This document shows, piece by piece, positions 10,098-32,688 of a stretch of DNA of 60,411 nucleotides (position 1 is its first letter; every line of letters begins with the position of its first letter). The notes below the pieces were generated by a model. It did not search any database, was not told the DNA's origin, and worked only from the letters and a program-made list of their open reading frames with translations. The stretch spans positions 1-60,411 of the forward strand of contig CAZNEH010000004.1 in NCBI GenBank assembly GCA_964572175.1, written 5' to 3'. The stretch comes from an uncultured Gammaproteobacteria bacterium. Lineage in GTDB: Bacteria; Patescibacteriota; Patescibacteriia; UBA9570; CAZNEH01. The position numbers and the translations under genes are program-made.

Positions 10098-10118
10098 TGT
10101 TGGTTCTTGTTCTCCGAC

Positions 10119-10457
10119 TCAGATGAGCCAGCGAACGAACCGGACCAGCAGGTGCCAGGCGGTCCAGGTCTCTTCGTGCGAGATCCAGTAGGTGATGGCG
10201 CCGAGAACCAGCGAGGCGACGAAGGTGTAGAGGGGGATGTTTTCCCCGATGTTGTCGAGGAAGGCGCGCTTCAGGACTTGTCGCAGGGAGGGCCTAGCCT
10301 CCTTACGCAAGAAGGAGTAGGAGCTGCTGAAGTCGAGGAGCAGTCCGAGGCCAGAGAGGCAGAAGAGGATCAGAGAGATGACCCAGATCGTAGCCCCGCC
10401 GCAGAGCAGGAGTTCCTTGAGGTAGGGCCAGCAGAACAGGAAGGCATCAGTGAGCAT
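10119..10457 (-). CDS. GC-rich small membrane protein, unknown function
   Basis: ATG at 10457 preceded by GGAGG; C-ending codons; two hydrophobic segments; promoter TTGACT-17-TAAGGT on the minus strand near 10492-10520. Confidence 0.6.
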   Translation of the reverse strand: MLTDAFLFCWPYLKELLLCGGATIWVISLILFCLSGLGLLLDFSSSYSFLRKEARPSLRQVLKRAFLDNIGENIPLYTFVASLVLGAITYWISHEETWTAWHLLVRFVRWLI

Positions 10458-10602
10458 GGGGTTTTTCCTCCCCCGGTTGAAGTTCACTTAAACCTTATAA
10501 TTATTAACCTTTCTAGTCAAGGTGATTACCCTTGACATTTTAGATATTTTATGACAAAGTAGGCTCACCCCCCCCCCACTGCCCTCAGAAAGGAGGCACC
10601 TG

Positions 10603-11508
10603 ATGACTATGTCCCGTCCCCCCTCGCAGAGCGACGAGCACTTCGAGTACCAGATCTACGGGGATCACCACGAGGCCACACACTGCATCGTGTTCCTGCA
10701 CGGTACCCTGCTCAGCAGCTTCGGCATGTTCACGGGCCGGCAGATCAGCCAGCTCATCGCCATGGCCGAGCGAGACCTGGGCCACAAGGTCTGCATCCTG
10801 GCCTTCACCAGGCCCGGGTACGGCCACCCCGAGATCGAGAACACCACCGTCGACTTCGGGTTCATGGCTCGCCGCTACGCCGACAAGATCCGCAAGCTGG
10901 GGTTTACCCCCCTGGCCGTGATCGGTCACTCCGGTGGCTCCCTGACGGCTCACTACCTGGCCCTCCGGCTTCACCAGAGCTACCCGGACATCCGTCTGGT
11001 CCAGATCGCCCCCACCTGCGCCAACGACGTCCTCAAGTACCACCAGTTCCAGGGCAAGCTCAAGTTCCAGTGGATCCGCGACCTCTTCAGCAAGTGGCCG
11101 CTCCTGCCCCGCCTGCTGTCCTGGTCCATCGGCCAGCTCAACAAGCGCTCGGCCAAGACCCAGTTCGAGACTTGGGCTCAAGGCGCTGACGAGTGGATGC
11201 TGAGCGATCCGGAGATGCGCGGTGGTCTGTCCGAGTCCATCCAGCGCTCGGCCAGTAACTCCCGCTGCGGCTGCGGCTTCCACCTGGACTACGAGGTCTT
11301 CGTCTCCCGGTGGCGCACCATGAAGCCCTTCCAGAACTCCCTGCTCCTGGGCTTCAGCGAGGACACCATTGTGCCCCCGGACATGGTTCGCTGCCTGGCC
11401 GACGAGGTCGAAGGTCGCTACCAGATCATGGACGGCGGCCACTTCGACGCCTGGCACCCCGAGAGCATGACCTGGACCACGGTCCTCGAGTTCTGCCTCG
11501 ACCAGTAG
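10603..11508 (+). CDS. GC-rich alpha/beta hydrolase
   Basis: FLHG, GHSGG nucleophile elbow, 'EDTIVP' acid, GGH His; strong SD AGAAAGGAGG. Confidence 0.8.
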   Translation: MTMSRPPSQSDEHFEYQIYGDHHEATHCIVFLHGTLLSSFGMFTGRQISQLIAMAERDLGHKVCILAFTRPGYGHPEIENTTVDFGFMARRYADKIRKLGFTPLAVIGHSGGSLTAHYLALRLHQSYPDIRLVQIAPTCANDVLKYHQFQGKLKFQWIRDLFSKWPLLPRLLSWSIGQLNKRSAKTQFETWAQGADEWMLSDPEMRGGLSESIQRSASNSRCGCGFHLDYEVFVSRWRTMKPFQNSLLLGFSEDTIVPPDMVRCLADEVEGRYQIMDGGHFDAWHPESMTWTTVLEFCLDQ

Positions 11509-20880: not shown

Positions 20881-23754
20881 ATGGAAGGATCAATTGAATT
20901 AAAACAAGGCTCAGTATCAGAAGCAGAAAAAGCAAAATCAGAAATAGACTCTTATTTTGCTGAGTTATTATTATCTGAGCAATACCAAGAAGGAAGCGTT
21001 TTTGATTTATCTAGACAAGTAGAAGATCACCTTCGTCAAATAGCAGAAAAAAATAAAATTAATCTATCTCAAGTAGTTGAGATTTTTTTTGATAATTTAA
21101 TTACAGAATTTAAAAAATATCCCGAAGCTCCATCTCATCTAAGCGCTTTAAGAGAAAATTTATTTTCCGTGTCTCCTAACTTGAGTAATCTTTTGCCAGC
21201 AGATAAAATGATTAGAATAGGCGCTAAAATGACTAGGGCTCCAGAACTACAAAGATCACTAGGAAGTACAATTAACGGAGAATTGGCTTATGAGATGTCT
21301 TATTTAAGAAGAGAACATGTTGAGCAATTAACAGAGCAATTAGCCGAAGCCGCTTCTCACGATTCTTTAGGGGAAGTAGTAGATCAATTAGATTACTTGT
21401 TTAATATTGCGGCCCAGGCTGCTGCTCAAGGAAGTTGGGCCGAGGCTGGAGCTGATAATAGCCAACAATTTTTAGAAGCTGTAGCTACTGCTCGACCAGA
21501 GCCATTAGTTCAACTAATTGCTCAAGCCTATTTAGAAAGATCAGATCAAGAAATTAGAGACCCCTCTAGTTCAGTTTTAGAATACCGTGGCGATCCTGGA
21601 AGCGCTAGAATAAGAGTTTTTACTCCAGAATGGCAAGAAGAAGGCAGAGAATTAAGAGCTAGTTTAAATTTTTATCCACCTCTAAATAATAGTGATCAGG
21701 TTAGATATGTCGCCCCTGGAATAATCGGAATTTTTGATCACGCCGGAGCATTAAGAGGAATATCAGAGATTAATAAAGAAGATATTCCTGAACAAACAGA
21801 AGTTTCAGAACAAGTTATTGATCAGGCTAGAGACTTTGCTCAAAGATTAGTCGGTGATGCTAATTATTTATTTGCTGCTCTGCGTTTAACTAGGCAGTGT
21901 GACTCAGGAATTATAACTAGATTAAACCAGGAAATTCCAGGGGACTGGGAAGAAAATTATCAGATAATAGAGCAATTTAAAGAATTGCAAGCCCAAGCCA
22001 GACAAGAACAAAGCCAAATTCAATTAGCTGCTGAAGAAGCTAATCAACAAGCTAGTATTGATTTAATTAATAATTTTGGAAATGATCAAGCTAAAGAATT
22101 GTTAGCTCAAGGCTATATCGAACAAGCTTTTAACTTAACTGAAAGACTAGCTCCTCCAGAAGAAGTTATGAAATTAAGGCAATTTCACAGCGATTCATTT
22201 AGACAAGCCGAAGAAAAAATAACAACTACTAGACAAAGAATAATAAATGATAACCAGGAATTATTAGATAGAGTTAATGAAATACATCAAGACCTTTATG
22301 AACAGAGACATAAATTACAAGAAGTCATCAATGCGGCGGCTGATGAAGCAGGGGCTAGAAGGCAAGAAAAACTTCCCCAAGCAGAAGTGACTCCTTTACC
22401 AAAAGTTATTTCTAGCTCTAAACACAATCCATATACTCATGATCCATTACAAGACACTGCTTTATTATTAAATAATTTATACAGCCCTGATATCCAAAGA
22501 ATAGTCCAAGAAGATTTAGGCTTAAGCATTAGAGAAATTTCTTTTAGATCTCAGATTCAACTTTTACAATTTTTAGCCCGTGGAGACCAGGGTTCTTTTT
22601 ATCAGTTTGGTCAAGCCTATCAAAGAGAGGGGATTAATCAGGCCGATCTAATGAGTTCTTTCTTTGCCTTGTCTCAAGACCCAGAAATAGGCCGACAAAT
22701 TTTAGATTTTGCTGAAGCTGCCGAACCTGACGAAGTAAATATAGTCTTAGCTCGTTATAACGAAATAACCAAGCACGTAGATTCTTTAGAGTCAGAGGTA
22801 GGCGAGTTTTTTAGAGAAAAAGGAAGAGAAGTAGACACTCGTCGAGTAGTTCAAGAATTAGTTAAAAGAGCTAATCGAGTTTTACTTACAGCGATAGAAA
22901 CAGGTGATTATGAGGCTTTAGAACAAATCAATGCCGATGTGGTTGCCTTTGCTTCATTATGTCGAGTCACTTTAAAAGAAGGTCAAGACATAGCTTTGGG
23001 AGACATCGCTGGTTTTGACCGCCAAGTAGTTAGCACTGCCTTTTTATCTCAAGAACAAAAACAGCAAATGTTAGAAATTGCTAAAAGAAACTATGCTCGT
23101 TTTCCAGAAGTGTGGCAAGAGTTAGAAAAAATATTAGAAGAAGCTCAAGATGATTATTATATTTTAGTAAAAACTATAGATGACCAGCAAGTAGTGGCTG
23201 CTTTTGCTAGAGCCTATCATTTAGATGGTCAGCGGGTCTATTTAGGATCATTAAATGTAAATCAAGATTTGCGCGGCTCTGGAATAGGGGAAAACTTTTT
23301 ACAAGAGACCATTGCCCAACTAGCTGAAGAAAAAACAGTGGTCGCCGTAGTACGATCTGGCGTACAAGCTGGTACTAATTATATAGAAGAACAAGGCTTT
23401 ATCGGAGTAGGGTACCATGAAGACGTTAAAACCAAAAATCATAATGGTTTAATAGATATTGAAACTACTAGAGAAGAATCTCTTCTTGGTCAACGCTCCA
23501 AAGAAGATCTGATTACTGACCAGCAAGAAAATTTTCCTGGCAACCCTTTAGATCATCTAGGCCAAGATTATATTTTAGCTAGATTTAATACTGCTACTCA
23601 ACTAGAAGTCATTGCCCAAGTAAATCAAGAGTTATTAAATAATCAGGGTTATCGTTTAATCAGATATTTTAGCTTAGACCCCAAGGGGGAAGAGAGATTA
23701 TACGGTTTTGAAAAGAAAGTTCAATCTCAAACCGAGGCTGTAGCGGCTGCTTAA
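20881..23754 (+). CDS. Large helical protein with a C-terminal GNAT-like domain
   Basis: 957-aa ORF; 'LNVNQDLRGSGIG' acetyl-CoA motif A. Confidence 0.55.
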   Translation: MEGSIELKQGSVSEAEKAKSEIDSYFAELLLSEQYQEGSVFDLSRQVEDHLRQIAEKNKINLSQVVEIFFDNLITEFKKYPEAPSHLSALRENLFSVSPNLSNLLPADKMIRIGAKMTRAPELQRSLGSTINGELAYEMSYLRREHVEQLTEQLAEAASHDSLGEVVDQLDYLFNIAAQAAAQGSWAEAGADNSQQFLEAVATARPEPLVQLIAQAYLERSDQEIRDPSSSVLEYRGDPGSARIRVFTPEWQEEGRELRASLNFYPPLNNSDQVRYVAPGIIGIFDHAGALRGISEINKEDIPEQTEVSEQVIDQARDFAQRLVGDANYLFAALRLTRQCDSGIITRLNQEIPGDWEENYQIIEQFKELQAQARQEQSQIQLAAEEANQQASIDLINNFGNDQAKELLAQGYIEQAFNLTERLAPPEEVMKLRQFHSDSFRQAEEKITTTRQRIINDNQELLDRVNEIHQDLYEQRHKLQEVINAAADEAGARRQEKLPQAEVTPLPKVISSSKHNPYTHDPLQDTALLLNNLYSPDIQRIVQEDLGLSIREISFRSQIQLLQFLARGDQGSFYQFGQAYQREGINQADLMSSFFALSQDPEIGRQILDFAEAAEPDEVNIVLARYNEITKHVDSLESEVGEFFREKGREVDTRRVVQELVKRANRVLLTAIETGDYEALEQINADVVAFASLCRVTLKEGQDIALGDIAGFDRQVVSTAFLSQEQKQQMLEIAKRNYARFPEVWQELEKILEEAQDDYYILVKTIDDQQVVAAFARAYHLDGQRVYLGSLNVNQDLRGSGIGENFLQETIAQLAEEKTVVAVVRSGVQAGTNYIEEQGFIGVGYHEDVKTKNHNGLIDIETTREESLLGQRSKEDLITDQQENFPGNPLDHLGQDYILARFNTATQLEVIAQVNQELLNNQGYRLIRYFSLDPKGEERLYGFEKKVQSQTEAVAAA

Positions 23755-24497
23755 AGAGTTTGCCAAATATATTCAAATATAGATCTATGAAATCTAGCTA
23801 CTTGTGGATGTTGAATATGAAAGGCCATTAAAGAATCTTTTTCCGCCACTAAATATAAAGCTTTGTCATCATAAATTTCTACCGCATTATCAAACGGATA
23901 CTTTTTACTATCTATAAATTTAACTTCAGTAAATTCTGGATTAACATTTTTAGCATGTTCCCTAGATACAGGGTTATCGACCATGATCATTTTCTTTTTA
24001 ATTCCCTTTCTAATTCTAGCTTTTACATATTTTTCATTAATCTCCTTTACATACTGGTCTACATTAGCGCTATTTACAAAAGTGTAAATTATTTCCTCAG
24101 TATTTAGAGAGTCATGCAAGGCTTTAGCATAAGATTCCTCTCCTTCATAAAAGGTAATTCCTGGCTTATTATTAGCTAAATTATAATCAGAAGTTAATTG
24201 TTTTAAATTAGCTTGAATAGTCTTTTTGGCTTGTTCTAGGTCTTTTTGTCTTTGTTCTACATATTCAGCTAATTTAGAAGGATGTTCTACCCTAAAATGG
24301 GCGATTTTGCCTTTATCATATTGTTCTACAAGCCCCTTTTTCACTAAATCAGCTAGTTTATTATACACATTACCCCTTTTTAAAGGGGTTTCTTTAATTA
24401 TGGCTCCTGCAGAACATTCACCATGTTCTAGCAAATATTCATAGATTAAGACCTCGTCTTGGTCTAGATCCGCTTGTTTTAGGATATCGCTATACAT
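23751..24497 (-). CDS. TrmB-family HTH transcriptional regulator
   Basis: 'E..IY..LL..G...AG.I.....RGNVY..L..L..KGLV' wHTH plus PLD-like C-terminal domain. Confidence 0.85.
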   Translation of the reverse strand: MYSDILKQADLDQDEVLIYEYLLEHGECSAGAIIKETPLKRGNVYNKLADLVKKGLVEQYDKGKIAHFRVEHPSKLAEYVEQRQKDLEQAKKTIQANLKQLTSDYNLANNKPGITFYEGEESYAKALHDSLNTEEIIYTFVNSANVDQYVKEINEKYVKARIRKGIKKKMIMVDNPVSREHAKNVNPEFTEVKFIDSKKYPFDNAVEIYDDKALYLVAEKDSLMAFHIQHPQVARFHRSIFEYIWQTL

Positions 24498-24707
24498 ATT
24501 AATAGGGGATTAATGTTTATTTCTACCTTAATTGTATCTTATTAATATGTATTTGTCAAGGAAATTTGACAAATAAGCCTATATTTTATCCACAATCATC
24601 TAAAATTATAATCATTATAAAACATAATAAAGACAATATAAGCCTAAATAATAACTCCCAAAATAGCCCTTTTTTGACTTAAATTAGCCAATATTTATCA
24701 CAACCTA

Positions 24708-24736
24708 TTGACAAAATATGAAACCTATGATAAGAT
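24708..24736 (+). promoter_or_regulatory. Sigma70 promoter upstream of the long structured leader and cassette array
   Basis: TTGACA-17-TAAGAT with extended -10 TG. Confidence 0.7.
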
Positions 24737-24742
24737 GTCTCG

Positions 24743-25450
24743 TCAAGATGAAACGCAAAGAGAAACTGGAGAAAAGCACACGAACATTACAACCTAGTAA
24801 GAGAGAGCCCAGACACTGATCCTGGGTAAACAAAAGATCAGTAGAACACGCATGTCTCTCTCGTTAACCCTTCGATACGATTTTCCTAAGGAAAATCACT
24901 CAGGGTGAAACAGTTATAGAGATATGCGTGTTCTTTTATAAAAAGGAGTTGATTAATAGAGAAGTAAACCAGAAGTAAAAGTAGAGAGATTACTTCCCTA
25001 GAAATTAAATCCTAGATTACTCTGGAATACCCAAGCCTCCTTATATAAGGCGGAACGGTAAACAACGAGTTAATCAAACGATGATTAGCAAATGAGGTTG
25101 AGAACAGTAAAACGTTTTCCCTCGCAACTACCAAAAGGTGGTTTGAGCAATCAATAGTGCACAGCTAAGTCAACTTCGGTTGACCTGGCTGGCGAGGTTC
25201 TAGGAGCGCTTGCCTAGGACTTCACCAGCCGGTTCCAGTAAATAAACGAAAGGCTACTATTCTAAATACTTCTTAAAGAGCAGGTCCAAGGTGTTGGACT
25301 AAAAGAAGGAACAGAGTAGAGGACATTGACAACTTAGTTCTCCCTAAGCTCATAACTAGATTATGTGTTTAGGGAGCATCACGAGAGACTACGGCTAAAC
25401 GCGCGTTCATCTGGGTTGTCCAGGTGCGTTCGTAAAGCAGAGTCTTTCGT
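24743..25450 (+). ncRNA. Candidate ~700-nt highly structured noncoding RNA or 5' leader
   Basis: Successive hairpins, e.g. 24843-24934, cUUCGg-capped 25162-25191, 25187-25230, 25339-25376, 25381-25450; G-U pairs favour + strand; no ORF >=60 aa in the track before 25365. Confidence 0.6.
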
Positions 25451-25470
25451 TATGTATCATGGAGTCATTT

Positions 25471-25818
25471 ATGACCAAGCTCATCAACCTGACCCCCCAC
25501 GCCCTCACCCTCCGTGCCGTCGATGGCACGGACACCACCATCGCCCCCTCGGGGACGGTGGCCCGGGTCTCCATGACCCCGGGAGTCAAGACCGAGGTCG
25601 AGGGGGTCCCGGTCCCGGTGTGGACCGCGGACGAGGTGGGGGAGGTCACCGGCCTCCCCGCCCCGCAGGAAGGCACCTTCTACATCGTCTCCGGCTTCGT
25701 CGGGTCGGCCTGCAAGGGCCGCTCCGACATCCTCGTCCCGGGCACCGGCCCCAAGGACGGGGCCGTCCGCAACGACCGCGGCCACATCCAGGCCGTGACC
25801 CGCCTCAAGCGGGTCTAG
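25471..25818 (+). CDS. GC-rich cassette A: NLTPH-motif protein, putative Crn4-like ring nuclease
   Basis: MTKLINLTPH...ARV...GLPAPQEGTFYIVS...R.D...P...R...G pattern, which I recall for the Crn4 family; GGAG SD. Confidence 0.6.
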   Translation: MTKLINLTPHALTLRAVDGTDTTIAPSGTVARVSMTPGVKTEVEGVPVPVWTADEVGEVTGLPAPQEGTFYIVSGFVGSACKGRSDILVPGTGPKDGAVRNDRGHIQAVTRLKRV

Positions 25819-25831
25819 ACGGTCACCCCTC

Positions 25832-26140
25832 CCCAGTCATGAGGCAACTGGGAATTCGGAGGACACCTCGCCTCACCCCTGGGAGCACGCGCACCGCACA
25901 CCGCGTGTCGCTCCCATCCTTTTTTCCGCTCAGTATTTCTGCGAAAAATAAACATAGCGCAGCCAAATAGTGAGCGTAAATAAGGATTCTCACATCCTGA
26001 CCAGTAAAGGCCCTATCCACCCTTTGTGGATGCGCGTTCTTCCCAGAGCGCAGAGTGGAGCCACACTGACTGGTAAAAAATCTTGACCCCCCACGGGTCC
26101 CGGGTTCATGAGCCTTTACTCTCGAAAGGAGCAAATCATG
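25832..26140 (+). repeat. Divergent copy of the inter-cassette structured module
   Basis: Pseudoknot 25832-25875, GGGAGC..GCTCCC hairpin 25881-25915, hairpin 25916-25987, multibranch motif 26000-26074, SD GAAAGGAG. Confidence 0.8.
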
Positions 26141-26503
26141 TCCAAGTCCAACAGCGTCCCCACCGCCGCCGAGGAGGCCAAAAGCCTCTTCGAAGAGACG
26201 CTCCCCACCCTCCCCACCACCATCAAGAACGGGGTCGAGCGCCCCGTCTTCCAGTTCGAGGAGTTGAAGGAGGACGGGTCCGTTTGGGTCCACTCCGGAG
26301 CGGATGGCGTCCCCCCCCGAAAGATCGGTTCCATCGGGGAGCCGATCGAGGAGATCATCCCCGACAAGATGATCTCCTCCCTGATCTTGGAGGATGGCGG
26401 GGCCGGGGGGCTCCCCTCCGAACCACAAAAGTACCGGACCTCCGTGGCCCGGCAGCTCCGCCGGGAGCTGGCCGAGAAACTCCTCGCCATGTGCGAGGAG
26501 TAG
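26138..26503 (+). CDS. GC-rich cassette B: acidic hypothetical protein
   Basis: GAAAGGAGCAAATC-ATG start; C-ending codons; MSKS N-terminus. Confidence 0.7.
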   Translation: MSKSNSVPTAAEEAKSLFEETLPTLPTTIKNGVERPVFQFEELKEDGSVWVHSGADGVPPRKIGSIGEPIEEIIPDKMISSLILEDGGAGGLPSEPQKYRTSVARQLRRELAEKLLAMCEE

Positions 26504-26504
26504 T

Positions 26505-26796
26505 GCCTAGTCCAGGCCTAAGACACGTCTGGTGAAAAAAACAACTGTCTTCAGACGGGAGCCCGCGCATCGCACACCGCGCCGGTTCCCATCCTTTTTT
26601 ATTTTCATCATCCAGCATGGTGAACATAAATAAGGATTCTCACATCCTAAACCAGTAAAGGCCCTATCTCACACCTCGCGAGATGAGCGTTTCCTAGAAA
26701 CGCAGAGTGGAGCTACACTGACTGGTTAAAAATTAGACCCCCTCGTGGGTCCCGGGTCATGATCCCGGTTACTCTTTGAAAGGAGATATCATGTCC
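26505..26796 (+). repeat. ~290-bp inter-cassette direct repeat, copy 1
   Basis: Near-identical to 27027-27317, with differences only in the first ~40 nt. Confidence 0.95.
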
Positions 26797-27024
26797 CAAT
26801 CCATCGCCACGTCCCCCCGCCCCCAGTCCACCCCCGTCCGGTGCGCGCAGTGCGTGCATTGGGTTGAGAAGATGGGGGGCTTCGGCCTCTCCGTCTCCGC
26901 CAAGGAGAAGGGATTGAAGTTTTGCCTCGGCCAAAGGGCCGAGGCCTTCACTATGGGGATGGAGGACGCCTGCGTCCTCACCCCGCCAGACCACTTCTGC
27001 GCCCTGGCAAAAAAGAAGGAGTAA
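26791..27024 (+). CDS. GC-rich cassette C: small Cys-rich protein (77 aa)
   Basis: GAAAGGAGATATC-ATG; CAQCVHW...C...C...C. Confidence 0.65.
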   Translation: MSQSIATSPRPQSTPVRCAQCVHWVEKMGGFGLSVSAKEKGLKFCLGQRAEAFTMGMEDACVLTPPDHFCALAKKKE

Positions 27025-27026
27025 GC

Positions 27027-27317
27027 GCCTAGTCCAGACCTAAGACACGTCTGGCGAAACAAAAACTGTCTTCAGACGGGAGCCCGCGCATCGCACACCG
27101 CGCCGGTTCCCATCCTTTTTTATTTTCATCATCCAGCATGGTGAACATAAATAAGGATTCTCACATCCTAAACCAGTAAAGGCCCTATCTCACACCTCGC
27201 GAGATGAGCGTTTCCTAGAAACGCAGAGTGGAGCTACACTGACTGGTTAAAAATTAGACCCCCTCGTGGGTCCCGGGTCATGATCCCGGTTACTCTTTGA
27301 AAGGAGATATCATGTCC
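27027..27317 (+). repeat. ~290-bp inter-cassette direct repeat, copy 2
   Basis: Near-identical to 26505-26796. Confidence 0.95.
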
Positions 27318-27686
27318 AAGTCCATCAACACCGCCGCCCTCGCCTCCCTTCTCGCCCCCTGGTTCGCCAGCGGCGAGGACGAGGATATCCCGACCGGATG
27401 GGAGGTCGAGGGGGCTTACGAAGAGCCCCATCGCGTCCCCCGTGTCCACGGGGAGGTGGACGGAAACCGGATCTACTGCGTAGATCCGGAGGACCACTGC
27501 CCCTTCTGGCTGGTCTGGGGGGGACCGGGAGAAATCCCGGAAAACCTGTTCCACAACGACACCGCCCTCGAGGAGCGCCACGAAAAGCTCCTCGAAATCG
27601 GCAATGCCCTCGGGGGATGGCGAGAGTGCGAGGGGTGTGGAGAGTGTGTCTCAGTGGGGGAGGTATGCCCCCATTGCGGACAATAG
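27312..27686 (+). CDS. GC-rich cassette D: acidic protein with C-terminal zinc ribbon
   Basis: GAAAGGAGATATC-ATG; CEGC...CPHC at the C-terminus. Confidence 0.7.
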   Translation: MSKSINTAALASLLAPWFASGEDEDIPTGWEVEGAYEEPHRVPRVHGEVDGNRIYCVDPEDHCPFWLVWGGPGEIPENLFHNDTALEERHEKLLEIGNALGGWRECEGCGECVSVGEVCPHCGQ

Positions 27687-27697
27687 GCGCACCCAGC

Positions 27698-27830
27698 CCA
27701 GACCTGAGCATGTCTGGACACAAACAAACAACTGTTCACCTGGAAGCGTGCGCCTTGCACCGGCCGCGCTTCCATCCTTTTTTCTTTCCATTACTCTTTC
27801 TCTCTCTAGAGTAGTGGAGGGAAAAAAGAG
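27698..27830 (+). terminator. 3' module of the last cassette: pseudoknot + GC hairpin + U-tract hairpin
   Basis: ccagac/gtctgg stem, loop tgagca pairs tgttca; tggaagcg...cgcttcca then T-run; ccattactct/agagtagtgg. Confidence 0.7.
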
Positions 27831-27888
27831 GAGAACTAAGTTGATTTAAGGCAAAAAATATGCTATACTTAATAAGTAAAATAAAAAA

Positions 27889-29007
27889 ATGACACAAATA
27901 AGATATTTTGAACAAAGTGGGGGATACTACCCTATTTTTATTACTAAAGACTCTGGAGAAGAATTAAGAATTGGAGCAGCCTCAAATTATTGGGGAAGCG
28001 TAACTCTAAGAAAAGAGTTTGACCAATTAAACCCCCAAGAGCAGCAAGAGGTTATTAGACAAATAAAAGAAAAAGTTATTACCCCGGAACAATGCGCCGA
28101 GATCAATTGGCAGAAAACAGAAAAAGATTCAAACATTACAGATTTACGACAAGATTTAACCATTTTAAAAACGTCTGGAACAACCCTAGAGCATAGTTCT
28201 AACGTATATGATAGGCACGCAACATCCGGATATTCCCCGGATGAACGACGCGGCCCAGTGTCTTACACTAAGCAAGTACGTGTCCATAAGTTGTTAATTA
28301 AAGATAAGAAATTAGAGACTATTGGAAGTTTTCGCTTTTATGGATCTCCGGATAATCTGGAAGAAGTTAAGCAAGGATTATTAAGTGAAAAAGAAGCTAC
28401 ATTAAAAATGCTGCTGTCGCAAAGAGAGAAAGTTACAAACCCTTCCTTAGATCCTAGGATTCATGAAGACTTATCTCCGGAAGAATGGAGTCAAAGATAT
28501 AAAGAACGTTTTGATGCTTTATTTCAAGAGGCACTTTCTCGATGGGAGGCCGAAGATCAAGCAGCTAGAGGAGAGCAGGAATTAAAAATACAAGAATATC
28601 AGAATGCGGTTGAAGTATTAAAGGAACTGGTGCTACAAGCAGAGGAAAAAAAAGAGGAAATAAAAAAGAAAGCTCATTTTACCGATCATCCTCAATTTCC
28701 TTATACTGATTTTCGTTCTTTGGACATGATTATATTTTTTATAGATAGAATTAAAAAATATTTAGCTGATTGTGATCAGGCCATCCTTGAAGCTGAAAAA
28801 AAGGAAAAAGAGCTGGAGCCGGAACCAGAACTTCCTTCTTCTGAGCCGAATGAGCCCGTAGAGCCAGATCCCGAACCTGAGCCTAAAACTTATCAGCCTC
28901 CTAAAGAAGCGCTTAGCTTTAACGCTCTGCAAGCTGCTTTTGGCGGAGCCGCTAAGATGGACAGAAAACCCAGGAAGAAAAGAGGTAAGAAAAATCGTAG
29001 AAGATAA
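27889..29007 (+). CDS. Hypothetical charged/coiled-coil protein with Pro-Glu linker and basic tail
   Basis: 372-aa ORF with AT-rich codons; TATACT upstream. Confidence 0.6.
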   Translation: MTQIRYFEQSGGYYPIFITKDSGEELRIGAASNYWGSVTLRKEFDQLNPQEQQEVIRQIKEKVITPEQCAEINWQKTEKDSNITDLRQDLTILKTSGTTLEHSSNVYDRHATSGYSPDERRGPVSYTKQVRVHKLLIKDKKLETIGSFRFYGSPDNLEEVKQGLLSEKEATLKMLLSQREKVTNPSLDPRIHEDLSPEEWSQRYKERFDALFQEALSRWEAEDQAARGEQELKIQEYQNAVEVLKELVLQAEEKKEEIKKKAHFTDHPQFPYTDFRSLDMIIFFIDRIKKYLADCDQAILEAEKKEKELEPEPELPSSEPNEPVEPDPEPEPKTYQPPKEALSFNALQAAFGGAAKMDRKPRKKRGKKNRRR

Positions 29008-29016
29008 TTTATAATT

Positions 29017-30594
29017 ATGAACGAACCATCATTTAAACCAGGCCCTGTTTTAGAACAGCAACCTAAATTAGACATATCTCTAACCGCAGAAGAAGAGGCT
29101 ATTTTAAATAATTGGCCGGAGCGCCCGGAGTTAACTCCTCGGCAAATTATTCATAAAACTCAAGACCGTGAACAAACCTGCGGACAGGCAGTTTTTAATC
29201 TCGATCCTCGTTGGCAGGAAGTAAAAGTAAAGTATGATTTTGAAAACCCAGAAGACTTAGATTATTTTGCTGATGATCATGTTCGAGGGATCAATAATAA
29301 TTTTTGGCGAGCCGATGGACGACGTAAAGCCGGTCGTGATGATCGGAATTTATTATTAGAATTAGACGACGCTCAACAAGCAGAGCGTCAAAGATTAGAA
29401 AGATTATTTAGAAAAAGATTAACAGAAATTAGAAGAATTAGAGCCAGGGTCTTTGCTGAACATCAGCCTCCTTGTCCGACCGAAGCTGTTTTTAAATTAA
29501 TTAAAGGAGGACAATATTTTGAATATAACGATTTTGAAGAACCCTCTCCATTTAGCCATGTAAGCTCGGGATATGGTAATAAACGTGTTAGAGTTTCTAC
29601 TTCAGCATACTATGGTTATGTTGCCGGAAAAGAAGTGTTATCTGAACAAGAAATAGTTTATTTCCCAAAAGATGAAACCGATAAGCTCGGAGACTTAGAG
29701 ACTTCTCTTGAAGAAAGAGAGAAAATAGTCGCCGCCGCTAAAAAGGCAATCCAGAGCGAAGAGGTGCAAGCTCAAGTAGCTGCTTTAGCTAGGAATTCTG
29801 ATTTTAGGCAGGCTGCAGAAGCAAAAATAAAAATACAGCAAAAGCGTTATCATGATTTTTTAAACCACCCAGTTATTAGAAGAATTCACGATGCTGAGAA
29901 GCAGGCTCAGGCTAATTTAGATCAATTTGAAAAAGTAAAAATCTCTGTAAAAGTTAAACTTCATAAAGAAGGTCAAGCAATATCTCCTGAACAATCTGTG
30001 TTACAGGCTAGCCCCGTGCGGCCAGAAAAAATGGATCGTTGCTATCAAGTTCCATCTAGTGAAATAACCATCTCTCCAGCAATTAAAAAATTATTAGATT
30101 CAGTTCCAGAGACTCCTCCTTCCGCTCCTCCAAAACCAGAAAAACCTAAGCAACCAGAAATTACTCCCGAACAAAGACAAGAGATGGAAGAGTTGTATGA
30201 TTTAATTCAAGAAATCGCTCCAGTATACCAGCCAAGAGTAGACAAAGTAACAGATAAACGGACTAAAAGCCAGTTAAATACTCTTTTAAGCGGAGTAGCT
30301 AACGCTGCTTATGATTTAAGAGATCCTCAAGAATATAATCCAAATAAATTAAGAGGATTAAGGCAGAACATAGCTCAGCTAGACAAAAAATTAAGATTCC
30401 CAGAAAATTGGCTTGAATTATATCAAAATCTTAAAAAAACAATGGCTGAAAATGAAGATTTAAGAAGTTATTTTAACCAAGAAGAAGCTATTCAAAAATT
30501 TATTAACCACTGCTTACAAGAAATTTTAGCCAAAAGGCTAACTATTATTAACGAGGATAATCTATTAGAAATACTTGATTCTTACGAATTTTAA
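29017..30594 (+). CDS. Hypothetical helical protein
   Basis: 525-aa ORF in operon with the previous gene. Confidence 0.6.
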   Translation: MNEPSFKPGPVLEQQPKLDISLTAEEEAILNNWPERPELTPRQIIHKTQDREQTCGQAVFNLDPRWQEVKVKYDFENPEDLDYFADDHVRGINNNFWRADGRRKAGRDDRNLLLELDDAQQAERQRLERLFRKRLTEIRRIRARVFAEHQPPCPTEAVFKLIKGGQYFEYNDFEEPSPFSHVSSGYGNKRVRVSTSAYYGYVAGKEVLSEQEIVYFPKDETDKLGDLETSLEEREKIVAAAKKAIQSEEVQAQVAALARNSDFRQAAEAKIKIQQKRYHDFLNHPVIRRIHDAEKQAQANLDQFEKVKISVKVKLHKEGQAISPEQSVLQASPVRPEKMDRCYQVPSSEITISPAIKKLLDSVPETPPSAPPKPEKPKQPEITPEQRQEMEELYDLIQEIAPVYQPRVDKVTDKRTKSQLNTLLSGVANAAYDLRDPQEYNPNKLRGLRQNIAQLDKKLRFPENWLELYQNLKKTMAENEDLRSYFNQEEAIQKFINHCLQEILAKRLTIINEDNLLEILDSYEF

Positions 30595-30633: not shown

Positions 30634-31593
30634 CGTAAATTAGTCAAGACCTTTGCACCACTTCCAGTGGTGTTTGGTAGTTTATTCCCATGTGTAATCT
30701 TTCAGTATTGTAATAATGCAAATACTCATTTATCTTCCTGTTTAACCAGGGAGTATTATTCTTGTATTTAATAATTTCATCTCTCATCTCTTCTTGAATA
30801 GTTCTATTAAATCTTTCAACATGAGCATTGTCGTTAGGTTTTCTCACTCTAGAATGTCTATGCTTTATTCCAATGGGCTCAACCATAGAGGTGAAATATT
30901 TTGAGAACTCAGGGCCATTATCAGATTGAATACATCTAAAGTTAAAAGGAGTGTTTTTCCTAGCTTCTTTAAACGCTTGTAAAGAAGAATAAGTATTCAC
31001 TCTATTCATGGCTTTAGCCTGGGCCCACCTGGAATGACAATCTATTAAAGTAAAGATATAAACATTGTTTTTATTACTTTTTGGTATGTGAATAGTATCT
31101 AGTTGTCCTAAGTCCCCAGGTTTAGCTATTTTAGGACGCTTTATGTTTTGATGATACTTTTTCCAAGGAGAACGCTTTTTAATTAAACCATATTTGTCTA
31201 AGGTTCTTTTAACTGTAGAAAGACTTACTTTAATTCCTTCTCTTTTAAGTTGAGCGTGAACTATTTGAGCACATCTATTTCTTTTTAATCTTACTTCTAA
31301 TATTCTTTTTATTATTTTCTCATCTGTAGCTCGAGGGGATGTTTTGGGCCTAGAAGATAAAGTTGGAATTTCATAAATTGTGCAAGTAGATGGAGACTTC
31401 TGCAACCAACGTACCACACTAGAATGAGATACTCCAAAGTGTCTAGCTACTTTTCTAGTGCTCCAACCTTTATTTTTAACTAACATAACTGCTTTTGCCC
31501 TGACCTTGGGCAAATAGGGATTTGTTGTATATGGCATATGATTTATCATACCTTAAAATAGGTTAGGTGGTGCAAAGGTATTGAACCATTACG
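30634..31593 (-). mobile_element. IS481-family insertion sequence, 960 bp, 6-bp TSD GCACCC
   Basis: Imperfect terminal IRs (cgtaa..tcaagacctttgcaccac / gtggtgcaaaggtattga..ttacg); GCACCC at 30628-30633 and 31594-31599. Confidence 0.85.
30644..31537 (-). CDS. IS481-family DDE transposase
   Basis: HTH N-terminus; QLDT, QSDNGPEF, NAHVERFNRT, YNTERLH; likely start MPYTTNP. Confidence 0.9.
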   Translation of the reverse strand: MPYTTNPYLPKVRAKAVMLVKNKGWSTRKVARHFGVSHSSVVRWLQKSPSTCTIYEIPTLSSRPKTSPRATDEKIIKRILEVRLKRNRCAQIVHAQLKREGIKVSLSTVKRTLDKYGLIKKRSPWKKYHQNIKRPKIAKPGDLGQLDTIHIPKSNKNNVYIFTLIDCHSRWAQAKAMNRVNTYSSLQAFKEARKNTPFNFRCIQSDNGPEFSKYFTSMVEPIGIKHRHSRVRKPNDNAHVERFNRTIQEEMRDEIIKYKNNTPWLNRKINEYLHYYNTERLHMGINYQTPLEVVQRS

Positions 31594-31599
31594 GCACCC

Positions 31600-31628
31600 T
31601 TGACAAAAGCTTATTTTTGTGCTAGGAT
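31600..31628 (+). promoter_or_regulatory. Sigma70 promoter for cassettes E-F
   Basis: TTGACA-17-TAGGAT with extended -10 TG. Confidence 0.7.
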
Positions 31629-31673
31629 GTTTAGTCAGTTTCACCTGTTCTTTCCCCCAAAAAACCAAGGCCC

Positions 31674-31710
31674 CATGAGCCTGCAACTTAGAAAGGAGCA
31701 AATCATGTCC
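31674..31710 (+). repeat. 37-bp translation-start repeat (CATGAGCCTGCAACTTAGAAAGGAGCAAATCATGTCC)
   Basis: Identical at 32827-32863; related at 26107-26143. Confidence 0.9.
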
Positions 31711-32688
31711 CAGTCCACCTCCATCGCCACCATCATCGTCACCCACGGCGGTGAGTTCCACGCCGACGACGTGTTCTCCGGAGCAGTGCTCTCGGCCCTG
31801 GCCCCCGAGGCCGAGGTCGTCCGCACCCGCGACGAAGAGTGCTTGTCCTCGGCCACCTCCGAGAACGGCCCCATCGTCTTCGACGTCGGCGGCGACTACG
31901 ATGCCACCCTGCGCAACTTCGACCACCACCAGGAAGATGGAGCCGGCACCCGCCCCAACGGCGTGCCCTACTCCAGCTTCGGCCTCATCTGGCAGTACTA
32001 CGGCCGCCTGTACCTGGTCAAGGTACTGGGTAGCGAGCTCAACCTCGACTACAGCGACCTCCACAAGATGGTCGACGAAGACTTGGTCCAGGGCATCGAC
32101 AGCATCGACACCGGTGCGGTCGTCAACCCGTACTTCCAGCCCCAGATCAAGGACAACGAGGTTTCGGTCGACGTGTCCACGGTCTCCAAGGCCGTGTTCG
32201 CCATGAACCCCCAGCCCTTGCTCGGCGACCAGGACTACGACTCCGAGTACCTCCAGGCCGTGGCCGTGGCCCAGTCCCTCCTCCAGGGTGTGGTCAAGGC
32301 CTGCGCCGCCAAGCTGCTCGGCAAGACCCTCATTAAGTCCGGCCGCCGCTTCACCGACCGCATCGTGGTCGTCGAGGAGAACGTCCCCGAATGGTGGAAG
32401 ATCGTCTCCGACCCGGACAGCGGCTTCTCCGAGGCGCTCTACTACCTCGAGCCGGACCAGTCCACCCCCGGCGCCTGGATGATCTGGTTGGTCCGGAAGA
32501 CCCCCGACACCTTCGAGGGCCGCAAGTCCCTGCCCGCCGCCTGGGCCGGCAAGCGGGGTGGGGAACTGGACCAGATCACCGGCCTCACCGGCTGCGTCTT
32601 CGTCCACCCCGGCCGCTTCGTTGGCGGGGCCAAGGACCTGGACACGGCCATCGCCATGGCCAAGCTGGCCATCGAGATCGAGGACTAG
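31705..32688 (+). CDS. GC-rich cassette E: MYG1-family (UPF0160) exonuclease/phosphoesterase
   Basis: THGGEFHADDV, VRTRD, DVGG, FDHHQ, SSFGLIW, FVH motifs. Confidence 0.9.
   Translation: MSQSTSIATIIVTHGGEFHADDVFSGAVLSALAPEAEVVRTRDEECLSSATSENGPIVFDVGGDYDATLRNFDHHQEDGAGTRPNGVPYSSFGLIWQYYGRLYLVKVLGSELNLDYSDLHKMVDEDLVQGIDSIDTGAVVNPYFQPQIKDNEVSVDVSTVSKAVFAMNPQPLLGDQDYDSEYLQAVAVAQSLLQGVVKACAAKLLGKTLIKSGRRFTDRIVVVEENVPEWWKIVSDPDSGFSEALYYLEPDQSTPGAWMIWLVRKTPDTFEGRKSLPAAWAGKRGGELDQITGLTGCVFVHPGRFVGGAKDLDTAIAMAKLAIEIED

Follow-up and report, generated by a model that had tools for sequence, protein, structure and literature searches.

A probable long non-coding leader with exceptional predicted folding upstream of a Crn4-type ring-nuclease homologue in a Patescibacteria genome

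Introduction

Why should a bacterium with a compact genome keep some 725 nt of DNA without a gene between a strong promoter and the first of a row of small genes? The genomes of Patescibacteria are tiny and have next to no DNA to spare. These bacteria live on other microbes, and to our knowledge very little has been established about how they regulate their genes or handle the defences of their hosts. The window, by which we mean the whole stretch of DNA analysed, is the 60,411-nt contig C4 (CAZNEH010000004.1) of a Patescibacteria assembly of 1.08 Mb (GCA_964572175.1; 37.8% GC, 98% complete). The element in question is a structured non-coding leader on the + strand (24744..25470), followed by an array of four GC-rich cassette genes, for which a preliminary description of the sequence had proposed a novel large non-coding RNA or leader that controls or carries the array. 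We find that the leader is real, unusual for this genome, conserved in close relatives and without a described family, and that the gene directly behind it is, by its sequence, a homologue of the Crn4 ring nucleases. The reading that we favour, and to which we give about an even chance, is that of a structured 5' leader, cis-acting and confined to one lineage, on an mRNA that runs into the ring-nuclease gene; it would act by attenuation, through mRNA stability or by both.

Results

Promoter, coding content and predicted folding of the leader

Upstream of the leader lies a sigma-70-type promoter with an extended -10 element (TTGACA-17-TAAGAT, TG present; 24708..24736, + strand), which scored 10 of 12 in the promoter scan and is of the same aTTGACAaaa type as the promoters of other GC-rich units in the genome; judged from its position, the transcript would start near 24744. 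Between 24744 and 25470 no stop-free frame exceeded 50 aa under translation table 11 or 59 aa under table 25, and the idea of a decayed gene was rejected, tblastx against the syntenic loci of relatives having shown none. The + strand scan of 24737-25470 found no other promoter of at least 9/12 and no strict terminator. The leader thus lies between promoter and open reading frame (ORF), on the same strand and with no gene between them, which is the position of a cis-regulatory mRNA leader.

The preliminary description had held that such long non-coding DNA is rare in this organism, and the assembly agrees: the ORF-free gap, which measures 867 nt with the divergent promoter region included, is the third-longest of the 1.08 Mb, and since only the 16S and 23S genes exceed it, it is the longest ORF-free stretch that is not ribosomal. 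The distance is also exceptional for a gene of this kind. In a comparison of 33 GC-rich ORFs that bear a Shine-Dalgarno (SD) site and have a strong promoter within 1.2 kb, to which the first cassette gene (ORF1) was added by hand, 18 had 21-109 nt from promoter to start, and all four examined distances above 700 nt contained ORFs of 162-335 aa. ORF1, at 728 nt, had the longest ORF-free distance, followed by 436, 229 and 193 nt.

The predicted folding of this stretch is far beyond chance. The minimum free energy of the whole leader was -245.3 kcal/mol on the + strand vs -216.2 kcal/mol on the - strand, with z scores of -11.4 vs -6.07 relative to 20 shuffles each (-9.6 vs -6.0 with 12 shuffles), and every one of 14 random 724-nt windows of the same genome (30-44% GC) lay between z -3.1 and +1.7. 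Per nucleotide, the leader reached -0.33 kcal/mol vs -0.12 to -0.235 kcal/mol in these 14 background windows. The dense structure claimed for it from the letters is therefore borne out, both against shuffles and against genomic windows of matched composition. With 150-nt sliding windows, the structure peaked at 24825-24974 (z -6.1), 25050-25274 (z about -4) and 25350-25499 (z -3.3), and the + strand had the lower z in 7 of 8 windows across 24825-25499. The model predicts a chain of about 12 hairpins closed by three weak long-range helices, most helix probabilities being above 0.9.

None of the known RNA families accounts for the leader. Rfam 15 at gathering thresholds had no match in the whole window, and at E <= 10 the ranges 24000-30000 and 24690-25480 gave no relevant match, only a sub-threshold RT-14 RNA and microRNA noise. 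No family reached its gathering score among those suggested for comparison at the outset (transfer-messenger RNA, RNase P, group I and II introns, OLE, GOLLD and ROOL), to which HEARO and the riboswitches were added, and ARAGORN found no tRNA or transfer-messenger RNA. The RT-14 candidate (RF02921, 24858-25000; 29.9 bits, E 0.053, vs a gathering score of 48.1) was rejected because it is sub-threshold and because its alignment rests on a 45-nt mobile insert that one of the close relatives (X3, below) lacks; the locus also differs from an RT-14 setting in that no reverse transcriptase was found among the neighbouring genes scanned against Pfam. Among the titles and abstracts listed for large structured RNAs or GC-rich islands in Patescibacteria, none was relevant.

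The gene behind the leader

ORF1 (25471..25818, + strand; 115 aa) lies in a region of 66% GC and is preceded by the SD site GGAG at 25461-64. A profile built from 27 homologues and run against the PDB matched the three Crn4 structures Crn4b 9r7b (2.3e-11), Crn4a 9sma (9.6e-9) and Crn4 H15A 9qs9 (3.2e-7), and the single ORF1 sequence matched Crn4b 9r7b at 8.3e-6, with the run LINLTPH identical. Crn4 is a recently described class of broad-spectrum ring nucleases that degrade cyclic oligoadenylates (PMC12830947), the molecules with which type III CRISPR and related defences raise the alarm. T13, H15 and R112 (Crn4a numbering) are given as the key residues, R112 being the catalytic arginine, and the copies of Crn4b on phages and plasmids are regarded as likely anti-CRISPRs (PMC12830947). 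In our alignment T8 and H10, which correspond to the Thr/His motif at the N-terminus of Crn4, were invariant in 27 of 27 homologues, and R32, R84 and R100, likewise invariant, are candidates for the equivalent of R112. By sequence similarity and by this Thr/His motif, ORF1 is a Crn4-type ring-nuclease homologue. The PADLOC profile Unk_01 ("unknown small protein, sometimes fused to CARF") also matched it, at 2.9e-20, as did PHROGs 21731 and 30542, both of unknown function; the 674 homologues found at E <= 0.001 in a large protein collection, the best of them about 70% identical, included none with a Pfam domain.

No Crn4-like gene was found in 150 relatives; of 400 further genomes from the phylum, 6 carried one or more, and a species-level collection contributed 15 loci, 8 of which are labelled Patescibacteria; the 15 loci came from an alignment-based scan, a single-protein scan of the same collection having found nothing. 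Where the composition was compared, the gene formed a GC-rich islet in an AT-rich host (65-68% vs 30-42% at locus L048, and 67-70% vs 32-38% at locus L056). Searches of the genome studied here found no CRISPR-like repeat array, no Csm1-type Cas10 and no SMODS cyclase (CD-NTase).

Elements of the leader

Every sequence element named in the preliminary description was found at its position, and the helices listed there had probabilities of 0.93-1.0 in the partition function, apart from the long-range helix ttgattaa/ttaatcaa, which is outcompeted by local pairings of p > 0.9. The first roughly 100 nt are predicted to be unstructured (z +2), so that the nearly continuous helices do not, as had been stated, begin right after the promoter. 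The first hairpin of note (ACUGAUC/GAUCAGU, 24815-21/24836-42; p 0.93) lies within the best-conserved island, 24799-24866, and is followed by a 17-bp hairpin with one G-U pair (24843-59/24918-34; p 0.99) and then UUUUAU, the whole terminator-like region spanning 24843..24939. This hairpin and U run would come about 190 nt into the predicted transcript, directly after the most conserved island. Its apical loop carries a 45-nt palindromic insert (24867..24911) that resembles repetitive extragenic palindromes (REP) and miniature inverted-repeat transposable elements (MITE). Copies of the insert were found elsewhere in the genome, on contig C14 (25773-25810, 97%), at 35679 of C4, and on C17, C15, C26 and C10, and it is the sole part of the leader with a second copy in its own genome; a REP/MITE-like element of 38-45 nt also occurs in two genomes from another family of the order (G004 and G010).

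The remaining elements lie closely packed on the + strand. The SD-like word AAAAGGAG at 24941-48 was recognised from the letters, and CCTCCTT at 25036-42, which is identical to the core of the organism's 16S 3' end, falls within the second of five hairpins predicted in series (24944-25013, 25028-25060, 25069-25089, 25094-25123 and 25126-25143; helix p 0.8-1.0). Next come a cUUCGg hairpin (25169-84) and, directly adjoining it, an 8+11-bp helix with three G-U pairs (25185-25232), the unit 25169..25232 being predicted at p 0.99-1.0. These two had been taken for overlapping alternatives; in the partition function they lie side by side and form together. A further block (25254..25376) consists, in the same calculation, of a three-tier hairpin (25257-25319) and the hairpin ctccctaagc/gtttagggag (25340-49/25367-76, region 25340-25376). 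The last domain (25377..25454) is closed by the helix ACGAGAGACU/AGUCUUUCGU (p 0.94-0.99), within which acgagagact/agtctttcgt would pair 25381-90 with 25441-50, and it holds two copies of GCGTTC and one GCAGAGT within 25403-25443.

Conservation in two close relatives

In the genome collection searched, the organism is the only species of its family, and the searches that reached further returned nothing that could be aligned. BLAST of the leader against 60 relatives gave matches in 3 non-self genomes, two of them through the mobile insert and the third over 78 nt (E 5.8e-4), and BLAST against 400 genomes of the class gave matches of chance size, of at most 43 nt, in 12 non-self genomes. A single-sequence covariance model of the core 25165-25325 scored at best 13.6 bits in 150 relatives and 17.5 bits in 12 Crn4-like loci. 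Two leader patterns had no match in IMG/VR, blastn found no leader in the phage and plasmid collections, and JGI metagenomes searched by the regulator protein (below) gave no confirmed case; a 20-mer from the conserved island hit 5 JGI loci, all of them unrelated GC-rich contigs with 21-29 nt in common. The search for homologues in Patescibacteria that had been proposed as a check thus yielded no alignable leader over the sets of 60, 150 and 400 genomes; two close relatives that have one were reached through an index of public reads, besides the probable source run.

These two relatives, X2 and X3, are contigs of two public runs from other studies, aligned at an identity of at least 80% and compared through a table of differences. 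Both share the first codons of the divergent regulator (X3 24412-24501, 90%; X2 24409-24538, 88.5%). The intergenic DNA that follows is about 79% identical in X3 (24517-24697) and replaced by unlike letters in X2 (24539-24669), and the promoter returns in both (X3 24670-24737, 91%; X2 24670-24743, 90.5%). Within the leader, X2 has unlike letters over the early part (24744-24813); the conserved island follows with 98.5% identity in X3 (24799-24866, 1 difference in 68 nt) and about 92% in X2 (24814-24862, 3 differences and 1 gap in 49 nt). X3 cleanly skips exactly the 45 nt of the insert (24867-24911), which in X2 falls within a longer replaced stretch (24863-24995). The middle is about 87% identical in X3 (24912-25229) and about 93% in X2 (24996-25176), and the core reaches 96% in a second contig of X3 (25157-25229, 3 differences in 73 nt) and about 96% in X2 (25153-25348). 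The last domain is about 85% identical in X3 (25388-25459), with insertions and deletions at the apical loop, and X2 is unlike beyond 25348.

The leader pieces 24799-24866 and 24996-25348 are therefore 92-98% identical, vs 88-90% for the regulator codons and about 79% for the intergenic DNA of X3. Of the leader differences, at least 12 in number, 9 of the 12 that were listed fall at positions that are unpaired in the model, 38% of all positions being unpaired and several of the entries being linked; this preference lends the fold weak support. Past 25459, X3 has an SD site and a different ORF start whose first codons read Met-Glu-Phe-Asp-Leu-Ile, which would be compatible with, although not proof of, a diverged homologue of ORF1 (Leu-Ile-Asn-Leu-Thr-Pro-His). 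The relatives align again from about 27752-27760, inside the last terminator of the array, and between the leader and that point nothing can be aligned at an identity of at least 80%. Because the relatives keep both the leader and the DNA after the array, these look like the conserved flanks of a slot whose contents vary between strains.

Promoters at other Crn4-like loci

At least four other Patescibacteria have promoters of the TTGACA/TATAAT type far upstream of their Crn4-like genes, with well-folding DNA between. At L048 (1678-2500) a consensus promoter lies 823 nt upstream (z -9.2 sense, -5.1 antisense), and the distances are 460 nt at L053 (2035-2494; z -4.1 and -2.0), 250 nt at L066 (1245-1491; z -5.7 and -4.9) and 239 nt at L056 (2253-2491; z -8.4 and -3.0). 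L048 has a canonical terminator (13-bp stem and U7) within about 120 nt of its promoter, and at L056 a helix is predicted to pair the SD site with a stretch 80 nt upstream. At L055 a consensus promoter lies 940 nt upstream, over a stretch that folds better antisense and has an 87-aa stop-free frame; at one further Crn4-like locus the promoter is 26 nt away, and 12 Crn4-like loci scanned had no promoter of at least 10/12. The five upstream regions, ours included, shared no 7- to 10-mers at the thresholds set. The pair L056/L066 scored z 3.9, and was discarded as its alignment was unconvincing by eye. Distant promoters and well-folding DNA thus recur before Crn4-like genes, in regions that do not align with the leader.

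The cassette array

GC content rises from 32-44% in the leader to 62-66% across the next 2.3 kb, which hold ORF1 and three further GC-rich genes, ORFs 2-4 (26138-26503, 26791-27024 and 27312-27686, + strand), each with an GAAAGGAG SD site and without a Pfam match. Apart from one marginal match (a 2101-aa protein, E 1.8e-4), ORF2 and ORF4 had no relatives in large protein collections; for ORF3 the comparison covered the family libraries. Across the whole genome (G000), SD-like words stood upstream of 68 of 138 GC-rich ORF calls (>=55% GC) vs 78 of 809 AT-rich ORFs (<45% GC), and the 16S 3' end of G000 has the usual CACCUCCUU. Behind each of the four cassette ORFs comes a hairpin rich in G+C, from which four bases lead to a T6 run: the terminator-like hairpin T1 (25881..25926, + strand), with AUCC between the stem and U6, has similar copies near 26557-26601, 27078-27122 and 27758-27784. 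The strict terminator scan does not list T1. A structured repeat of 163-166 nt precedes ORFs 2-4 in the 5' untranslated region (UTR; 25975-26137, 26625-26790 and 27146-27311, + strand), and its predicted fold begins with a hairpin, continues with a multibranch domain whose closing helix is ACCAGU/ACUGGU, and ends in two hairpins ahead of the SD site. The three repeats share 42 predicted pairs, 2 of them with a compensatory change.

The last domain of the leader had been likened to this multibranch motif. A covariance model of the three repeats (R1, which represents two distinct sequences), run with filters off at E <= 10 on the window and on the genome, found its three training copies only (152-209 bits), and nothing in 24700-25470; the words GCGTTC and GCAGAGT are therefore no evidence of relatedness. 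Of the initial proposal of a novel large RNA or leader, the absence of a known family, the position before the first cassette gene and the conservation of the core above coding DNA all stand, and this likeness to the cassettes falls away.

In the promoter scan, cassettes 2-4 lacked any sigma-70-like promoter. A perfect 14-nt inverted repeat (25330..25343 and 27830..27843) brackets the last 130 nt of the leader and all four cassettes; at up to 2 mismatches it has only these two copies in the window, and its significance is modest, 6 of 100 shuffles reaching 2 matches. With no promoters at cassettes 2-4, terminators whose stem and U run are spaced by AUCC, and the bracketing repeat, transcription of the array from the leader promoter is plausible from the sequence but unproven. 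The right copy of the repeat, just past the last terminator, overlaps the -35 of a promoter-like site before a 372-aa gene.

The divergent regulator and the surroundings

Back to back with the leader promoter, a promoter on the - strand (TTGACA-17-TACAAT, 24559-24531) serves a divergent gene (23751..24497, - strand) for a 248-aa protein with a winged helix-turn-helix (HTH) N-terminus of the TrmB/MarR type (Pfam TrmB, 4.4e-9) and a C-terminal part of about 180 aa without assignment. Its HTH is also similar to that of the Csa3/CasR profiles, below their cut-offs, and the protein is one of a large set of paralogues in the order, a family with up to 25 matches per genome. A 957-aa GNAT gene and the regulator are retained in four other genomes (G008, G030, G021 and G023), where the next gene follows the regulator directly and the leader is absent. 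The closest regulator homologues in other genera adjoin a GC-rich gene (57-70% GC in 200-nt bins) at 3 of 7 loci (L014 in G008, L018 in G017 and L020 in G013), without a long leader.

Other GC-rich islets of the window encode an alpha/beta hydrolase (10107-11508) and a MYG1-family exonuclease homologue (31600-32688; Pfam 1.7e-61), the latter abutted by an rve-type (DDE) transposase gene (30644-31549). On contig C8 of G000, a 507-nt ORF-free stretch (23828-24334; z -4.8 and -6.0) that closely precedes a GC-rich unit may be a gene for a housekeeping RNA, and on C13 (28164-28606), between two GC-rich units, a long near-perfect palindrome with an N run inside reached z -16 to -18 on both strands and may be an assembly artefact.

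Discussion

How might such a leader act? In the reading that we favour, an mRNA would start at the 24708-24736 promoter and run through the leader into the first of the four GC-rich cassette genes, so that the leader, native, AT-rich and limited to a genus-level lineage, would serve as a conserved expression platform before a strain-variable cassette slot. Its most likely action would be control after initiation: the 17-bp hairpin with UUUUAU may either stop RNA polymerase or let it pass, as in attenuation, and the remaining fold may set the stability of the mRNA and the level of transcription that reaches the ring-nuclease gene. Part of the transcription would then pass the leaky cassette terminators into cassettes 2-4, and the divergent winged-HTH protein would set the activity of the promoter.

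Several observations weigh against this reading. Strong folding by itself does not single out this locus, since z scores of -5 to -18 also occur in other intergenic gaps of the genome. A perfect hairpin can form on both strands, the - strand of the leader itself having z -6, and G-U pairs are equally frequent in the two strand models (17 of 227 pairs on the + strand, 15 of 225 on the - strand); the assignment of the leader to the + strand therefore comes mostly from the promoter and the ORF. One element, 24867-24911, is demonstrably a mobile palindrome, X2 has unlike sequence at 24744-24813, at 24863-24995 and beyond 25348, and no alignable homologue exists outside X2 and X3 in the collections searched. 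The 17-bp hairpin and its U run fail the strict definition of a terminator on account of an overlong loop and a short T run. In the folding model the leader does not sequester the SD site or start codon of ORF1, which are predicted to pair with codons 4-9 with or without it. The other Crn4-like upstream regions share no detectable sequence with the leader (alignment z <=1.5), and that of L048 has a 124-aa stop-free frame on the opposite strand.

The mobile palindrome, the other well-folding gaps, the z of -6 on the - strand with its similar G-U count, the two or three segments replaced in X2 and the lack of homologues beyond close relatives could all be accounted for if the stretch were a non-functional spacer, in which palindromic mobile elements and decayed DNA came to separate a promoter from a foreign gene and folding is a by-product. 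We think this unlikely, though it is the alternative to be taken most seriously. Within the genome, every part of the leader except the 45-nt insert is single-copy; its core segments are conserved above the adjacent coding DNA and much above the adjacent intergenic DNA; the listed changes lie mainly in unpaired positions; and a 1.08-Mb genome with very little non-coding DNA has kept it as its longest gap outside the rRNA genes. The strong promoter could also serve a stand-alone, trans-acting RNA, either of about 190 nt, ending at the hairpin and U run (24939), or of the whole 700 nt, acting on other targets. The best-conserved island does lie within the first 190 nt, just before and within the terminator-like hairpin, a canonical terminator follows the L048 promoter by no more than about 120 nt, and the SD-like AAAAGGAG and CCUCCUU, the core of the 16S 3' end, are words of which the latter could in principle pair with the cassette GAAAGGAG sites. 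Yet the strict scan finds no terminator within or at the end of the leader, whose 3' end runs straight into an SD site and ORF both here and in X3, a second target site did not turn up, and the anti-SD word measures 7 nt and is folded into its own hairpin; we hold such an RNA to be quite improbable.

A role at the level of DNA, as the conserved left flank or recombination site of a cassette-exchange hotspot comparable to the Pc-attI of integrons, would fit the way in which the leader, as far as 25348 or 25459, and the DNA onward of about 27752 are retained in the relatives around contents that cannot be aligned at >=80%, as well as the 14-nt inverted repeat that brackets the array; homologous recombination, with the conserved terminators and 5'-UTR repeats between cassettes as substrates, could support exchange. 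The adjacent divergent gene is, however, a winged-HTH gene and not a recombinase, the nearest DDE (rve) transposase is 5 kb off, the 14-mer pair is only modestly significant, 700 nt is far beyond what a recombination site needs, and hairpins conserved above the level of coding DNA would be left unexplained, all of which makes this reading very unlikely in our judgement. The nature of the regulated gene finally suggests a large riboregulator that senses a ligand or signal, for example cyclic oligoadenylates or another defence nucleotide, and switches on the ring nuclease. The high conservation of the core segments and the four other Patescibacteria with promoters 239-823 nt upstream of Crn4-like genes, with well-folding DNA between, speak for it; against it, the five upstream regions share no aptamer-like motif (alignment z <=1.5), known riboswitches are several times smaller than 700 nt, the model has no expression platform that involves the SD site, and the genome shows no source of such signals. 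This we consider highly improbable. A broader form of the same thought, a long shot, is that the leader belongs to a set of large, fast-evolving sensor RNAs before Patescibacteria Crn4-type genes, and that it would sense a defence signal, such as a cyclic oligoadenylate, or a cue of host contact and then let transcription pass its early hairpin to reach the ring nuclease and the orphan cassettes; if true, this would describe a switchable counter-defence module in a bacterium without a cyclic-oligoadenylate system of its own.

As a cis-acting leader, the element resembles several known systems in part. It shares with OLE, GOLLD, ROOL and HEARO the size class of several hundred nucleotides, a dense multi-hairpin architecture and nearness to mobile or foreign genes; it differs from them in having no covariance match at E <= 10, in being confined to one lineage and two close relatives, and in lying directly before an SD site and ORF, whereas these RNAs are free-standing genes. 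Leaders that attenuate or bring about processive antitermination, such as the eps-associated EAR and the put sites of phage HK022, measure about 70-120 nt and are defined by function. The common trait is a promoter-proximal structured RNA before an operon with internal terminators, the array here having four terminator-like hairpins and no internal sigma-70-like promoters. Our leader, in contrast, has about 725 nt and no match to these in sequence or structure, and read-through would here be deduced from the layout of the array.

There are anti-CRISPR operons with an HTH Aca regulator, including cases in which the regulator binds the RNA of the 5' UTR, and the known acr leaders are short. The locus shares with them a small HTH gene adjoining a group of small genes, mostly orphans, under a strong promoter, and its first array gene belongs to a family for which an anti-CRISPR role on phages and plasmids is proposed (Crn4b, PMC12830947). 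It differs in that the divergent regulator is a TrmB-like protein of 248 aa from a large chromosomal paralogue family, and in that the setting is a Patescibacteria chromosome and not a recognised phage. With integrons (intI, Pc, attI, attC) the locus has in common a conserved, promoter-bearing platform at the head of strain-variable small cassettes that are separated by structured repeats. Unlike an integron, however, the array has no integrase or tyrosine recombinase beside it, each cassette has its own SD site and terminator, with 5'-UTR structure before ORFs 2-4, and the repeats are sense-strand UTRs and not attC-like recombination hairpins.

The longest non-ribosomal non-coding stretch of this genome is thus a conserved, exceptionally well-folding leader before a Crn4 homologue. 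If it is only a palindrome-filled spacer, it shows how foreign GC-rich genes become wired to native promoters. The recurrence of distant promoters before Crn4-like genes makes the idea of a regulatory leader testable across lineages, and should the leader prove to be a functional regulator, it would add a new member to the large RNAs of bacteria and offer a way to ask when an epibiont puts a likely counter-defence gene to use.

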